DNA from: Truepera sp.
GTDB lineage: Bacteria; Deinococcota; Deinococci; Deinococcales; Trueperaceae
Length of the DNA stretch: 64,000 nt
Reading direction: 5' to 3'
Assembly (NCBI GenBank): GCA_965218435.1
Contig: CBDCKW010000005.1
Span: 480,001-544,000 of the forward strand
This document shows, piece by piece, positions 35,904 through 50,340 of this stretch. Position numbers and translations under genes: made by a program. The notes below the pieces were generated by a model. It was not told the DNA's origin and ran no database searches. It saw only the letters and a program-made list of their open reading frames with translations. Each line of letters opens with the position of its first letter. Positions within the stretch are counted from its first letter, which is position 1.

Positions 35904-36947
35904 TGCTAGCTTGTTTCTCCCGCCCTAAGAGTTTCTTTTTCCGATCAATCCCCCAGCGATAGCCGCTCAGTTCGCCGTCACGCCGCACGACCCGGTGACA
36001 GGGAATTGCCACAGCAACCGGGTTTAAGGCGCACGCCTGAGCCACGGCGCGAACGGCAGCAGGTCGCCCCACCAACTCCGCGACCTCGGTATAGCTCCGG
36101 GTTTCACCGCTGGGGATGGTCTGCAAGGCTCGCCACACCTGCTGCTGAAACGCCGTCCCCTGAATCTCTAGCGGTAAGTCCAGAGTCTTGTGCGGGGACT
36201 TGATCAGCTCGAGCACCTGCACTAGCCAGTCATTTGTAACGTCCGGCTCTAGATCGGCCCGTGGAAAGCGGTCCGTAAGCATCTGCACTAGCCGAGCGGG
36301 GGATTTGCCAAACTCGATGGCGCATACCCCGCGCTCAGTCGCGCCGACGATCAGCCAGCCCAGCCCCGATTCTGCAAGGGCGTAACGGATAGAGAGACCT
36401 GCCGCGCCCTTCCGGTACTGGGTCACACTCATTCCCATGCGCTCGGTCGCACCCTCATAGAAGCGGCTGGAGGCGTTGAAACCCGCGTCATAGATGGCTG
36501 TTGTGACCGCCGCACCACTCGCTAGCTGCTTTTTCAGGCGGCGGTGGCGTAGCCTTTCGGGGTTATACCGACACTAGCCTTGAACAGCCGGTGAAAGTGA
36601 GAGGGGCTCAAACCGACTGCGGCGGCCAGCTTGTCAAGCGCCAGCGCTCCCTCCGCCTCTTCAATGAGCTGGCAGGCACGGACAATCAGCTCAGAGCGGG
36701 CAGCACGCGGCGGGGCCTTGTTCGGGGTACAGCGCTTGCAGGCCCGGAAGCCAGCAGCCCCGGCGGCCTTCTTACAAGCCAAGAACAGCACGTTTTCACG
36801 TTTGGGCAGTCGAGCGGAGCAGGTCGGATGGCAGTAGATGCCGGTCGTCTCAACACCGTACAAAAACACCCCTTCAGCGTGAGCGTCGCGCTGCTGCAAC
36901 GCGGCCCAGCGATGGCTATCAGTCCCAAAATCTTGTAGCGCTGCCAT
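35904..36947 (-). pseudogene. ada: Bifunctional Ada regulator / O6-methylguanine methyltransferase, frameshifted near 36535
   Basis: TTGIYCHPTC..FRACKRC zinc site, AraC HTH and IPCHRV active site lie in different frames. Confidence 0.9.
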
Positions 36948-45657: not shown

Positions 45658-46260
45658 TCAGTCTGCTTCAAGTAAAGCTGTCCACCAACCTAGATTCGGC
45701 TCTCTGTGCCCCGGCTTGAAATTTCCACCAATCTGCACATCAAGAAGTACTTCTCGAAGCGCTTCTGCATCAAGTTGAACAGCTTCCGACCACCTCTTAA
45801 GTAAGCCGATGCTTGTCATGACTGAAATGTCTGGCGCTCGCGCTGTAATTTCTCTAATGGCTTTACGGTCATCGGTGACGAATGCCCCGCCTCGCAAGAT
45901 GACAGCCGCGATAGTTTCGGCCTCTCCCTGATCCAAGCTAGCGGCCAAGTCGATCAGCGCCTCTAGCTCTTCGTCCGTGGAAAGCTCAGGTTCGAGATGG
46001 AGGCTACCCGAGGTTAGAGCAGCAGCCAAGTCAACTGAAACGGGTGAGCCTCTCGCCATACCCTTGCGTTCGTAAACGTAAAGCGCCTCTTCATGGGCAA
46101 CCCACGGGGTAACCAAGAACTCGAATTCCAGAACCTCCGCTATTTCCCCGAGTCTCTTCGTGGCGTACAGATTGAGCAGCGCACAGGAGTCTAGATACCA
46201 CCGCTGACGCACTAACGATTCCTGACCGTGATCGCTTCCTCGACGGGCAATGGTGTCCAA
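45658..46260 (-). CDS. PIN-domain ribonuclease
   Basis: YLDSCALLN, V..E, LDQGEAETIA and FVTDDRKA acidic motifs. Confidence 0.8.
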   Translation of the reverse strand: MDTIARRGSDHGQESLVRQRWYLDSCALLNLYATKRLGEIAEVLEFEFLVTPWVAHEEALYVYERKGMARGSPVSVDLAAALTSGSLHLEPELSTDEELEALIDLAASLDQGEAETIAAVILRGGAFVTDDRKAIREITARAPDISVMTSIGLLKRWSEAVQLDAEALREVLLDVQIGGNFKPGHREPNLGWWTALLEAD

Positions 46261-47441
46261 CCTTGATGTCCCTCTTCGTCGAGCGTAAATTGATGGCGAA
46301 ACTCTTCAACGACGTCTCTAGCTAGCAATCGGTTGACACCGAGAAACTGTGCGAGTTGACCTTCGGTGATCTCCTCTTTAAGAAACGCCAAGACTGCAAG
46401 GAGCCGGTAGCGTTCCGGCAGCATGGGTTCTTCGGATAGAGATTCCGTCGTTACTCCGGCGATCTCTTGAGCTTTTCTAACCTTGAGGCCGTCTGCCTTA
46501 AAGCCGTTGACCGTACCGTTCGTAAGTACGCCCATTTCCTCAAGCCTGTAGCCGTAAGCTTCAAACGAAACGCCGTAGTACCGGGCAAAGCGTAAAAGGT
46601 CTCCGAGCGTGAAGTCACCGGCAGTTTGAATATGGGAACGGAGTTGGCGGCGTACCCCACTCTCGGGCAGCAAGAACCTCGAGGCAAAAGCATTCGCAAA
46701 CCGTTCAGACTCGGGATAGCGGTCATAGCTTCTCAGAACCTGTATCTCTGGGTTCATGCGGTTCGTAAGAAAATGTCCATACTCATGCGCTAGAGTCATC
46801 CGCTGCCGGTCGGCTGGGTGCTTGCGGTTGATCGCAATACATCCCCCAAGTTCGTCGGTAAAGCCAAACATCCCAGCGATCTGCGAAGGTAGATCGAGGT
46901 AAAAGATTCTGAGACCGACTTCCGTTTCTAGTAGAGACCGAAGCTCCCCAATGGGACTGTCGCCAAGGTTAAGACGAACCCGCTCCTGTTTAGCGATCTC
47001 GTCAGCAGCGATCTCGACGGGCATACCCGAATACGAATACTCCGCTGGGTAACGTTTGGGCATGGCTGAGCCCATCATAGTTTCGAGCGTCAGGTAGTTC
47101 TCTGCATACTTCTGGAGTAAAGCAACGGCCTGTTCGACCTCGCTTTCACCTACAACGTCCAAAAGCCTCTTCTCAAAGCGTGCGCGGAAGGCGACACTAA
47201 GATCCCCGGTTGGAACCGGACGCCGCAAAAGCATATTCAAATCCTGCTCATAAAATCCAGCAAGCTTCGTCAGGTCGCTGGGCGTTAAGCGTCGCTTCCC
47301 CTGCTCAACGGCGACGAGCGAGGTGCGGGCAATCTCTAGAACCCCGGCAGCATCCTCTTGCGTTTTACCTGAAGCTTTTCGGGCACTCTGAAGTCGCTTA
47401 CCTAAGGTGACCCAATCGATACTTTTTAAGTCAAAAGTCAA
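46212..47441 (-). CDS. XRE-family HTH fused to ImmA/IrrE (peptidase M78) metallopeptidase
   Basis: TQEDAA..IARTSLVAVEQGKR; RQRMTLAHEYGH; E.FANAFA..FLLP; GAGGAG RBS before TTG 47441. Confidence 0.9.
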   Translation of the reverse strand: MTFDLKSIDWVTLGKRLQSARKASGKTQEDAAGVLEIARTSLVAVEQGKRRLTPSDLTKLAGFYEQDLNMLLRRPVPTGDLSVAFRARFEKRLLDVVGESEVEQAVALLQKYAENYLTLETMMGSAMPKRYPAEYSYSGMPVEIAADEIAKQERVRLNLGDSPIGELRSLLETEVGLRIFYLDLPSQIAGMFGFTDELGGCIAINRKHPADRQRMTLAHEYGHFLTNRMNPEIQVLRSYDRYPESERFANAFASRFLLPESGVRRQLRSHIQTAGDFTLGDLLRFARYYGVSFEAYGYRLEEMGVLTNGTVNGFKADGLKVRKAQEIAGVTTESLSEEPMLPERYRLLAVLAFLKEEITEGQLAQFLGVNRLLARDVVEEFRHQFTLDEEGHQGWTPLPVEEAITVRNR

Positions 47442-47455
47442 GGCCCGACTCCTCT

Positions 47456-48871
47456 CTATGTAACATGGCTCGGCAGACGCGGCAAGGTCGCCGAAAACCA
47501 CTCCCATTCACAAACGTAGGTTGTAAACAGCTTAACAAGCTCCTCCGTTACCTCCTGGATGGTCAGGTTGGTTGTGGCGGCGATGGCCATCCTCGCGCTC
47601 ATCAGTTCGGGGAACTCACGTAAAAGACTGGCGAACTTGGCTTTCACGTTCTCCTCATCAAGTGCGTAGCGTAACCGCTCAGCCTGGGTCTCCATGCAGT
47701 GTAAAGGCAACAACTTGATACTGTTAGAAGTGCTCGGCACCGTATGATATACGTCCGTTTCATATGTCTTTTGGTCTCTATCTAGGCTTTCCAAGTTGCC
47801 AGCAGCTAGAGATACTCTTCTTAAAAGGCACGACGTACAGACACCGCACTGCTCTTTTGATCTGGGTTTCCGGCGAGGGAAACCGTCGCATGAGATCGTC
47901 TGAACGGCAAGGTCGCCGAAACCTCGCTCCTGCACCTCAATACACATCTGGCCTTTGGTCTTCCACAAAGATGGGTTTTCAATCTTGATGGGCGTCTCGA
48001 ATAAGTTAGAGGCAAGGGCAGCCATCCGCCTTAGCCCTTCAGGATGCATGGCACGGGTGTAGTCCACGCCTAGACCCGAGACCGTCTGAGGCAAGTTGAT
48101 CGCTCCCACGCCATTTTCGTAGACGTTGAGTGTACTCAGACCAAGAACGCGCGCGACCGAGATGCCGAGTGCCAAAAAGAGAAACCCCCGCGAGCGTTGG
48201 GTTCGCTCTTGTTCCAAACGCCCCTTGCTATAGGCATAGGAGATCGCCTGTTGATCGAGGTGATGATGTAGTGGAACATGGATCAGCTTTTTGCCATCTC
48301 GCTTTAATTTTCGGTTCGTCGCCTCTAAAATCTCACGCTGACGAGTGAAAAGATTGCCGCCGGTGTACGAAGCAACCAAAACACCCGTATCGTGCCCAGG
48401 AATATAGATTTGGCTGACAGCTCCGGCAAACGAATCCAGACCGCCGCTAAACAACCCTACAAACGAACAATCCACCGGCTCATCAAAAAGTGGAACTGCT
48501 ACGCTTTCCGACTCAAGGGGAGCGAACTCGAAAGACCAGGTGTCACCTGTAAAAAAGCCGAGTGCCGCTTCTAGACTCTGTTGCAGGTGAGGTTGCGCCC
48601 AGAAACTACATTTTCTTACCTTCACCTTAAGCTTGAACACTCGACCCGTCATGGCAGTAGCCCAGTCATCCGGGTGGCCGGGCGAACGAGGCGTGATACG
48701 GTCCGCTACATATGCGGCCATAGCGACATCGAGCAGATCTTTTTCAGCTTCTGGCAAATGTGTCATTAGCGTGTGTTCGACGGTGGTCGTATCAATACTT
48801 AGGGCTCGAGCGTCAACCTGCACTGCATCCGTAAAAGACTGCTGCCAAAAAGGATGAGCAAAGTCAATCAT
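47456..48871 (-). CDS. QueC-like (7-cyano-7-deazaguanine synthase family, QatC-like) PP-loop enzyme with N-terminal extension
   Basis: LFSGGLDS, ERTQRSRGFLF, YENG, TRAMHP, NP..WKTKGQM, SC..QCGVCTSCLLRR; about 471 aa, roughly twice canonical QueC. Confidence 0.85.
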   Translation of the reverse strand: MIDFAHPFWQQSFTDAVQVDARALSIDTTTVEHTLMTHLPEAEKDLLDVAMAAYVADRITPRSPGHPDDWATAMTGRVFKLKVKVRKCSFWAQPHLQQSLEAALGFFTGDTWSFEFAPLESESVAVPLFDEPVDCSFVGLFSGGLDSFAGAVSQIYIPGHDTGVLVASYTGGNLFTRQREILEATNRKLKRDGKKLIHVPLHHHLDQQAISYAYSKGRLEQERTQRSRGFLFLALGISVARVLGLSTLNVYENGVGAINLPQTVSGLGVDYTRAMHPEGLRRMAALASNLFETPIKIENPSLWKTKGQMCIEVQERGFGDLAVQTISCDGFPRRKPRSKEQCGVCTSCLLRRVSLAAGNLESLDRDQKTYETDVYHTVPSTSNSIKLLPLHCMETQAERLRYALDEENVKAKFASLLREFPELMSARMAIAATTNLTIQEVTEELVKLFTTYVCEWEWFSATLPRLPSHVT

Positions 48872-49504
48872 CGTTTTCCTCAAGGTCTAGCCCGATAGCA
48901 CTCCTATTGATTCCAAGAGAAACGCTGACCAACTCAGGCTGCGAAGGTTTCTGGTACTTAGGGCGACGGATAGGGGTAATTTTTGGCTTGTCGGAGTTTT
49001 TAGCTAGTTCCTTTGCAGTGGCTTTAAGTTCATCCCGTAACACTTCCTCGCAAGCTCGAAGCTCTTTTTGGGCTTCAGTAATGTCCCTATAAATGTCTGG
49101 CACCCCCCTCACACCCAAAACACCCAAACAATAGACCCGTGGGACTTCGACGCAAAATTCTTCGCATAAGCGTTCTCTAACTTCATCTACTGATTTAGGT
49201 TGCTCTGAGGAAATAAGCATTTCGGCCCAAGCACGCTCTGCTGCATGTAACCTTCACGGGCTAGTTCACTGTTCACTGGGGGTTTCAGCGTCGCCCCCAA
49301 ACGCTCTTCTAAAGGAAGTTGCACAAGTTGCGAGAGCTGCTGCGTCAAAGGTTCCAAAAACTTTGAGCCCGAGGACTTACCCAATTCTTTAGACGTTATA
49401 TGTGCAAGGTACTTCGCTAAGAATTTAGGCCCTTTACGGGCAGCCCTGTATGCCCCGCGCCATCCTTTAGGTAGTGACCTAGATAAGTTATCGCGATCAG
49501 GCAT
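48864..49504 (-). CDS. First gene of the QueC-like operon; hypothetical ~213 aa, apparently frameshifted near 49250
   Basis: AGGAGG RBS before ATG 49504; two overlapping ORFs (49187-49504, 48864-49220); the second overlaps the QueC-like start. Confidence 0.6.
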
Positions 49505-49522
49505 TCACAAGCCTCCTACTTG

Positions 49523-49551
49523 AAAATACTGTAAATGTCGAAAAATGTCAA
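49523..49551 (-). promoter_or_regulatory. Sigma70-type promoter of the QueC-like operon
   Basis: TTGACA-17 nt-TATTTT just upstream of the RBS. Confidence 0.6.
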
Positions 49552-49612
49552 TTTTTATAGTTTAATTTACTCTTAATATTTGACATTGACAAGTCCTGAT
49601 CAGCAGTAATTA

Positions 49613-49644
49613 AAATATGCCGAACTGAACAGTTCGGCATATTT
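49613..49644 (-). terminator. Intrinsic terminator directly after the tRNA-like gene
   Basis: AAATATGCCGAACTG-tt-CAGTTCGGCATATTT followed by TAATT. Confidence 0.7.
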
Positions 49645-49651
49645 CATATTG

Positions 49652-49771
49652 TGACCCTGGAGAGGTTCGAACTCTCGACCTTCCGTTAGTGGTGCCAAGT
49701 TGAGGTACTGCCCCTCAAAAAGTCTTTGAACTTGACTCATACGGGTGCTCTATCCACTAAGCTACAGAGTC
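49652..49771 (-). ncRNA. tRNA-like RNA with a 54-nt structured insert in place of the anticodon loop
   Basis: Acceptor GACTCTG/CAGGGTC; D-arm GCTT-AGTGGATA-GAGC; stem CCGT/ACGG; variable AGGTC; T-arm GAGAG-TTCGAAC-CTCTC; discriminator A; no encoded CCA. Confidence 0.8.
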
Positions 49772-49828
49772 GTATCTACCTTATGGCTATTTTACAGCTA
49801 ATTCGTGCTGAATGCAGTTCCGTAGACA

Positions 49829-50340
49829 TCAAGAAAAGCTGCTGCCCGGTAGCGTTGATGTGTTTACCCGGTACCGCCCTGTCCGGTTCGCCGCGGGCTC
49901 GAGCCCCTCGAGCTGCCCCAGCGCGACGAGCCGTTGCAACGCCTCTGCTGCATTCCGGTGCGAGATGCCCAGCAGCCCCTCGAGCTGCCTGACCGATACC
50001 TCTACCTCACCGTAAGGCTCGAGATAGAGATAAACGAGCTTCGCTGTCTGATTCTCCGCTAGCAACCGTTCGGGGAGTGCCAGCGCCTGCACCTCGGGCT
50101 GACCACCTGGTGAACCGCTCGAGGCCCCTACTGGTGTCCCTCGGCTGTTACTGAGCCCAAGCCCCCGCAACCTCTTGAGTGAGAGCGAAACCGCCCCCTG
50201 GGAGATACCTAATGCTCTGGCAATCTGCCGTTGAGAATAAGCCACAAGCTGCCCGGGCTCTAGCCAGAGGTAAAGCAGTTTAACGATAACGCTCTCGTTT
50301 TTAAGCTCGGCAAGTATAGGGGTCAGCGTGGCGAGTTCGG
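49829..50340 (-). CDS. Tandem winged-HTH protein; start uncertain, possibly truncated
   Basis: Two similar units KLLYLWLEP..SQRQIARALGISQ and KLVYLYLEP..SVRQLEGLLGISH. Confidence 0.55.

Follow-up and report, generated by a model that had tools for sequence, protein, structure and literature searches.

A tRNA-shaped RNA gene with a structured insert in place of its anticodon loop: a candidate non-decoding tRNA mimic next to a QatC-like cassette in Truepera sp.

The DNA analyzed here, a 64,000-nt stretch of a Truepera sp. genome that we refer to as the window, lies on a 685-kb contig (C5) of an assembly of 4.8 Mb in nine contigs that is 100% complete. On the minus strand of the window we identified a 120-nt RNA gene of tRNA shape, followed by a terminator-like hairpin and a QatC-like defence-type cassette (Table 1). 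Upstream of the RNA are genes for a 138-aa winged-helix protein and a DUF6876 protein and several small ORFs, of which the genome contains several paralogues at other sites. The RNA is a single-copy gene, and neither it nor its insert includes any segment that recurs in the genome. All 45 tRNA genes identified by ARAGORN in this genome, and its tmRNA, are on contig C9, and there is no other tRNA on C5.

Table 1. Features of the RNA gene and of the neighboring cassette, with their positions in the window and the basis of each assignment.
Feature	Positions	Strand	Basis
120-nt tRNA-shaped RNA gene	49652–49771	minus	RF00005 match, fold and single copy in genome
54-nt element instead of the 7-nt anticodon loop	49687–49740	minus	sequence and fold; aligns to the 52-nt G049 insert
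Most conserved block, TCAACTWGGCACCAYTA	49687–49703	minus	alignment of window and G049 copies
Terminator-like hairpin, 16 bp, then U-rich tail	49613–49644	minus	fold and palindromic self-match
Candidate promoter, CTGCAT-17-TAAAAT	49789–49817	minus	read from sequence
QatC-like defence-type cassette, neighbor of the RNA	45658–49504	minus	profile matches and ORF reading
QatB-like gene, split (ORF105 + ORF118)	49187–49504 + 48864–49220	minus	comparison with homologous loci
QatC-like gene, 475 aa	47456–48883	minus	PADLOC QatC, NCBIfam QatC
HTH+IrrE/M78 peptidase gene, 431 aa	46212–47507	minus	domain matches
PIN-like DUF3368-type gene, 200 aa	45658–46260	minus	protein language-model look-alike

The Rfam tRNA model (RF00005, gathering score 29) matched the RNA from end to end (model positions 1–71) with a score of 47.5 bits, and this was the only above-gathering Rfam match in the window. 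The match bore out the coordinates and strand that had been assigned to the gene in a first-pass annotation made from the sequence alone and, together with our reading of the sequence, the canonical acceptor, D, variable and T arms described there. The acceptor stem has 7 bp, including one U-G pair, the discriminator base is A, and both U8 and A14 are present. The D stem of 4 bp encloses the loop AGUGGAUA, which contains GG, and the anticodon stem has 4 bp and a C-A mismatch. The variable loop is AGGUC, and a 5-bp T stem carries the loop UUCGAAC. Every stem and all of the tertiary-contact nucleotides are intact in the window copy, and CCA is not encoded in the gene. The earlier observation that G-U pairs favor the minus strand was upheld by three pairs (U4-G69, U13-G22 and U37-G77) that are compatible with that strand only. 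A comparison with the tRNAs of the host showed no close parent, the best of them, tRNA-Arg(tct) and tRNA-Thr(ggt), sharing 52–56 of 66–67 compared positions with the RNA.

ARAGORN at default settings called no tRNA at this locus. With introns allowed, as had been suggested, it reported a tRNA-Val(cac) with a 47-nt intron, which we consider weak evidence because the same mode produced ten other intron calls in this genome. Elsewhere on C5, at 36401–36630 and 278485–278714, ARAGORN called two identical-looking 230-nt genes for tRNA-Lys with a 142-nt intron, which are probably part of a repeated element.

The departure from a normal tRNA is confined to one place, as all 51 nucleotides that were not aligned to RF00005 lie inside the anticodon loop. 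The predicted minimum free energy fold of the 120 nt comprised the cloverleaf, a GUCAAGU/ACUUGGC stem within the insert and a distal hairpin, which confirmed the structured 54-nt replacement of the 7-nt loop proposed in the first-pass annotation. The folding energy of the 120 nt alone was ordinary relative to shuffled sequences (z −1.1). In order, the insert consists of a 4-nt linker, the 7-bp stem (49730–49736 with 49694–49700), a one-sided internal loop of 12 nt, a 5-bp hairpin with a 7-nt loop (49701–49717) and a closing single strand of 7 nt, ACCACUA. These proportions resemble those of an acceptor/T-arm minihelix, with 7 bp and 5 bp contiguous on the 3' strand, a 7-nt loop and then ACCA. 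Measured against the 7-nt loop, U33 and purine 37 of a decoding tRNA, the RNA departs with a loop of 54 nt and therefore cannot decode.

A covariance model built from the window RNA alone (R1) was searched against 151 genomes of the phylum. Its matches were mostly ordinary tRNAs of 72–74 nt with a few long ones, among them a homologue of 118 nt in a genome from a different family of the same order (G049, locus L190, 6043–6160). With RF00005 the G049 copy fell slightly short of the cut-off, at 25.8 bits (E 0.003 over 400 nt), and its insert of 52 nt was placed at the same point of the loop as in the window RNA. This constitutes support independent of R1, because the Rfam model owes nothing to R1. 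In the G049 copy the acceptor stem is bulged and the T stem contains a mismatch. A 46-aa ORF that runs over the window RNA (49600–49740) lacks a start codon in G049 and was dropped from consideration.

The longest conserved run in a plain alignment of the two copies was TCAACTWGGCACCAYTA, which is identical at 16 of 17 positions and is better conserved than any of the tRNA arms. It is made up of the 3' strand of the insert stem and the single-stranded ACCAYUA. MAFFT alone misaligned the two inserts, and the comparison of structures was based on a model-fitted alignment (A6). In this alignment of just two sequences, fitted to the structure of the model itself, 95% of cells were paired and 10 of the 32 pairs had changed on both sides. 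Each insert helix had one such both-sided change, and the first helix also had a one-sided change from G-U to C-G. When the structure was slid by 1–3 columns as a control, 32–48% were paired, and RNAalifold predicted the same fold from A6. For the changes in the tRNA arms, an alternative to present selection is that the same module was given to two different ancestral tRNAs. There is no such explanation from two parental tRNAs for the changes in the insert.

Another possibility is that the gene encodes a functional tRNA with a 47-nt intron that proteins excise, or that is lost through cuts of the RNase P type at the minihelix-like insert. In addition to the ARAGORN call and the minihelix-plus-ACCA dimensions of the insert, removal of the insert up to and including ACCA would in each copy leave a loop of exactly seven nucleotides with U at position 33, AUGA+CUA for the window and CUUG+UUA for G049. 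However, position 37 of a tRNA is nearly always a purine, and it would be U in both copies; in the window RNA any excision of 47 nt leaves a U there, so that none restores a normal loop. The anticodon stem has just four pairs, no bulge-helix-bulge was present in the fold, and the acceptor stem of the G049 copy is degenerate. At 47–54 nt the insert falls well below the size of group I introns, as the first-pass annotation had stated, and neither a group I core nor an Rfam intron match was found (Intron_gpI, E up to 10, 49300–50100). The host, moreover, already has tRNA-Val(cac) and tRNA-Val(gac), and we know of no bacterial enzyme system for such splicing. Based on these observations, we consider an enzyme-removed intron, which had been among the readings offered earlier, to be highly unlikely.

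The terminator-like hairpin begins 7 nt past the 3' end of the RNA, and a segment of 196 nt containing the RNA and this hairpin had a fold z of −3.6. The hairpin, which had been noted in the first-pass annotation, is thus real in the fold, though a consensus terminator scanner did not list it. The promoter proposed there fared less evenly. Its −10 element (TAAAAT, 49794–49789) is good, but the −35 element is weak, with 3 of 6 matches, and the promoter scanner did not call the pair. The RNA may also be co-transcribed from the upstream winged-helix gene, whose stop is at 49829. No RNA run was listed among the sequencing runs that contain the stretch.

The genes behind the hairpin had been described as a PIN/QueC operon. 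The "QueC" protein is QatC-like: it matched PADLOC QatC (2.9e-49) and NCBIfam QatC with 187.8 bits, relative to a cut-off of 280 bits for the latter. No match to QatA or QatD was found among the nine neighboring ORFs scanned. With a QatC match below the cut-off and neither QatA (ATPase) nor QatD (TatD) found among these ORFs, we interpreted the genes as a QatC-like variant cassette. The "PIN" label was only partly sustained, as the 200-aa protein was placed beside DUF3368/PIN-like clusters in a protein atlas but had no match in Pfam. Two promoter-like sites of the cassette itself are located in an AT-rich leader (49592–49523, minus strand). The leader also contains repeated TTGACA/TGTCAA-type words (49523–49592, minus strand), which are possible operators for binding of the HTH-IrrE regulator.

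The QatB-like gene is in two pieces in the window, ORF105 of 105 aa and ORF118 of 118 aa. In ten homologous loci the gene before the QatC-like gene is a single ORF of 211–242 aa (194–242 aa in a set of seven loci). The N-terminal motif of this QatB-like ORF is PDLDN in ten loci and MPDRDN in the window. A close relative from a lichen-metagenome run (X3), in which the arrangement of the window is kept, has 10 extra bases behind 49248, which by our frame count bring ORF105 and ORF118 together in a single frame of about 216 aa. The source runs agreed with the window at the split at depths of 50x and 275x. Judged from these comparisons of sequence, the QatB-like gene of this cassette is probably frameshifted.

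Relatives of the QatC-like protein are numerous, with at least 1395 at E ≤ 0.001 among 8000 candidates scored, and a protein of 89% identity (P0002) is encoded on a 7.7-kb contig. A single-protein search of genome contigs with the QatC-like protein returned none, and an alignment-based search was used instead. The resulting 172 cassette loci comprised 80 from genome contigs, 80 from metagenome contigs and 12 from genomes of the same phylum. By tblastn the HTH-IrrE gene was found in 151 of the 172 loci and the PIN-like gene in 131. The four-gene cassette (QatB-like, QatC-like, HTH+IrrE/M78 and PIN-like), lacking QatA and QatD, was seen in Acidobacteriota, Cyanobacteriota, Chloroflexota, Deinococcus and others. 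According to the excerpted text of a survey of the QueC family, only about a third of QatC-cluster genes occur with qatA/qatD, and that text makes no mention of IrrE or PIN partners (PMC13329287). The excerpted literature on QatC likewise mentions neither a tRNA-like RNA nor an IrrE/PIN context.

The position of the RNA would be consistent with its being a dedicated decoy, sensor or antitoxin RNA of the QatC-like/IrrE/PIN-like cassette: it shares the strand of the cassette, from which it is separated by about 150 nt on the upstream side, and both lie on the low-GC side of a composition break at about 49,860. Also in line with this is that the G049 copy adjoins a BrnT/BrnA ribonuclease toxin-antitoxin pair; with the PIN-like gene here, both copies therefore neighbor RNase-type toxins. 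However, not one of the 172 homologous cassettes contained an insert-bearing tRNA-like RNA. ARAGORN with introns allowed found 13 ordinary tRNAs and nothing else in 160 cassette loci, and Rfam found nothing in the 20 closest available. A model made from the window and G049 sequences (R2) had five matches over the 172 loci (1.37 Mb), all of them ordinary tRNAs of 73–85 nt. The first-pass annotation, which had suggested the tie to the operon, had itself named in advance the lack of such an RNA in homologous operons as evidence against its proposal, and this lack is what we observed.

Other observations point in the same direction. The terminator hairpin stands between the RNA and the cassette, which has promoter-like sites of its own, and no QatC-like gene is near the G049 copy. 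Pairing between the insert and the cassette leader was not special, as it was equalled or exceeded by 259 of 300 shuffled inserts. The absence from 172 cassettes leaves an operon antitoxin or decoy unsupported, and we therefore regard a dedicated role in the cassette as very unlikely. That the RNA is a regular component of the adjacent Qat-like cassette is not supported, and annotations should not assign the RNA to the QatC-like system.

The wider surroundings of the RNA are rich in transposases. GC content rises from 0.44–0.50 to 0.63 at about 49,800–49,900, and the likeness of contigs from the source runs that resemble the winged-helix gene ends at 49,862–49,866. Based on this rise and the end of the likeness, the RNA is at the very edge of a lower-GC block that also contains the cassette. 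In run X3, a contig covers 49694–50029, and with it positions 1–78 of the RNA, at about 86% identity, and no contig of that run bridges 49600–49693. The context of the G049 copy is different in its genes. It follows purL, purF and the BrnT/BrnA pair, and 3' of it are a terminator hairpin called by the scanner and then a convergent orphan proteasome-like gene, with which it forms a 1.2-kb islet of 39–50% GC in a genome of 70% GC. No protein neighbor is common to the two loci. In both, the RNA is at the edge of a low-GC islet with a terminator hairpin directly behind it.

The RNA borders a low-GC block and its 3' end faces that block, an arrangement reminiscent of tRNA genes beside integrated islands, and the first-pass annotation had listed a collapsed attL/attR scar in a tRNA gene among its readings. 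Several findings speak against such a recombination scar. No integrase family was identified among the scanned ORFs of 24.5–63.3 kb (those of 80 aa or longer, less a few), no segment of the RNA was found as a direct repeat around the island or in the genome, and att-like direct repeats were absent from both the window locus and the G049 locus. The insert helices, in addition, have been kept by compensatory changes. None of the relatives searched has the RNA, from which it follows that it arrived with foreign DNA. Together, these data make an att scar extremely improbable.

Searches for further members of the RNA family were negative. R2 found none in all 125 genomes of the family of G049 or in all 128 genomes of the window's own family; G325, a genome flagged as unpublished, contributes to the second of these counts and nowhere else. 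A DNA search with the RNA in 364 genomes of the phylum returned only 26-nt matches of the D arm to tRNA-Arg(tct), in three genomes. BLAST against plasmids gave no match for the RNA, and BLAST against phages gave a single chance match of 31 nt. Counts of a 14-nt motif with one mismatch allowed were no higher than those of a reversed-pattern control. The other exact match to the 14-nt motif, in genome G145, was rejected as not tRNA-like, and none of the 13 exact matches to a 16-nt motif in viral contigs was tRNA-like. On present sequence evidence the family appears to be rare, comprising two members and the close relative in one metagenome run, and it is absent from Rfam.

A family of this size, and an RNA for which decoding is impossible and over which ARAGORN passes at default settings, would be expected of a dead plasmid-borne tRNA gene in decay after a short insertion had destroyed its anticodon loop. 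The C-A mismatch in the anticodon stem, the transposase-rich region and the break in the adjacent QatB-like gene are also consistent with decay. By contrast, the stems and tertiary-contact nucleotides of the window copy are all intact, and the insert, which is not a repeat in the genome, is the best-kept part between the diverged copies, with helices that co-vary. Furthermore, a terminator has been kept directly behind both copies. We consider decay to be unlikely, though it is an explanation to which we give some weight.

The frame of the RNA is too good and its insert too well kept for a random wreck, and its loop bars decoding. These considerations led us to favor, as a probable reading from the sequences compared here, a stand-alone and horizontally acquired non-decoding tRNA mimic in which the insert is a conserved functional module or handle. 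The mimic was the part of the first-pass annotation's proposal that held up best; the role as decoy, sensor or antitoxin of the PIN/QueC operon that it had attached to the mimic did not. In such a mimic, the transcript would terminate at the hairpin just downstream of the RNA, and the tRNA frame would allow it to be trimmed and stabilized by the tRNA-processing enzymes of the cell. The non-decoding RNA would then act as a mimic of tRNA, with the insert serving as a specific handle for a partner protein or enzyme. Its role might be that of an adaptor, or of a decoy for a tRNA-directed activity, and it would travel on horizontally acquired low-GC DNA.

Other tRNA genes with inserts were seen in the same order. 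Dense tRNA arrays are present in eight Deinococcus-type genomes (L189, G064:C3:31800-43900; L188, G028:C5:71500-84000; and L234–L239 in G106, G075, G042, G117, G016 and G010), and several tRNA genes of these arrays have inserts of 40–70 nt. A hairpin motif, CYYGCC-loop-GGGCCGA/C, was present in 19 of 22 long array matches examined, often with GCCUUC/GAAGGC flanks. Y-RNA-like genes of the same array have a terminal helix composed of these two motifs with their order reversed, and one such gene (L189, 4665–4803) matched the Rfam Deinococcus_Y_RNA model with 54.6 bits, below its cut-off of 80. A TROVE/Ro60 gene is directly beside the array in all three array genomes tested. The site of the insert varies: in L189 5979–6112 it is after the D arm, with the anticodon arm intact, and elsewhere it is inside the D loop. 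From their sequences, the array genes resemble tRNAs onto which a Ro60-binding module has been grafted, which would make them circularly permuted YrlA-like RNAs. The Y-RNA helix motif in array tRNA genes thus points to the use of tRNA scaffolds for such modules in this order.

We found no description in the literature of array tRNAs with a grafted Y-RNA-type motif; the excerpted text of a survey of YrlA RNAs states that candidates overlapping tandem tRNA genes were discarded (PMC4201824). In one array, two long tRNA-like matches (L239, G010:C2, 3594–3707 and 4005–4118) have a third kind of insert, with GGGCAGGCGT...CCGTTCTGCCCAAGA in common, that contains neither the Y-RNA-type motif nor the motif of the window RNA.

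We tentatively speculate, as a possibility that is far from certain, that tRNA frames serve as modular adaptor RNAs in bacteria of this order and that the window RNA represents a second, independent type of module. The helix and ACCAYUA of the insert would bind a protein different from that bound by the array modules and bring it to a recognizer of the tRNA frame, and such RNAs would be carried between genomes on small islets adjacent to RNase-toxin and defence genes. If the insert is a protein-binding module, the Y-RNA idea of a tRNA-like part with a protein handle would gain a second module type, and the RNA would show what mimics do beside defence or toxin genes. With a near-perfect tRNA frame, a short co-varying insert and a gene of its own on a bacterial replicon, it is a compact and testable example.

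Among known systems, group I and archaeal tRNA introns are alike in being inserts in the anticodon loop of a canonical tRNA gene. However, a group I intron has a couple of hundred nucleotides or more and a core, and an archaeal-type bulge-helix-bulge has two 3-nt bulges separated by a 4-bp helix, whereas the only contact between the anticodon stem and the insert stem of the window RNA is of 2 bp (UG/CA). The tRNA-like domain of tmRNA has an acceptor/T-arm part and a long irregular helix at the site of the anticodon arm, a similar plan. The window RNA differs in having no tag reading frame, pseudoknots or G3-U70, and the tmRNA of the host, at 364 nt, is about three times its length.

YrlA and other bacterial Y RNAs, which are Ro60-binding RNAs with a tRNA-like domain (PMC4201824), share with the window RNA the union of a tRNA-like module and a protein-binding helix in one small RNA. 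The window RNA, by contrast, ends in an acceptor stem and not in a protein-binding stem, and it does not contain the CYYGCC...GGGCCGA motif. Of the Rfam families that had been suggested for comparison, the tRNA model matched, as described above, but YrlA, Y RNA and tmRNA did not, nor did Deinococcus_Y_RNA, at E values up to 10. Ro60/TROVE (PF05731) is absent from the host genome and from G049; the same search did find it in a control genome, that of D. radiodurans.

Non-decoding tRNA-shaped RNAs have been known since RNA C and RNA D of phage T4. The T4 species 1 and 2 RNAs (rnaC and rnaD) are, like the window RNA, small RNAs of about 120–140 nt that do not decode and that contain tRNA-like pieces, and the T4 record annotates both as "small, stable RNA" beside tRNA genes. 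In rnaC, an acceptor/T-arm-like part was included in a weak Rfam match. The best Rfam score for the T4 RNAs was 17.5 bits, to tRNA-Sec, and they did not reach the tRNA model, to which the window RNA scored 47.5 bits. In addition, the T4 RNAs are encoded within a cluster of tRNA genes, whereas the window RNA stands alone on a bacterial replicon, outside of tRNA arrays, and no match to it was found in phage or viral collections. The resemblance between the window RNA and the T4 RNAs is, then, one of kind and not of family.
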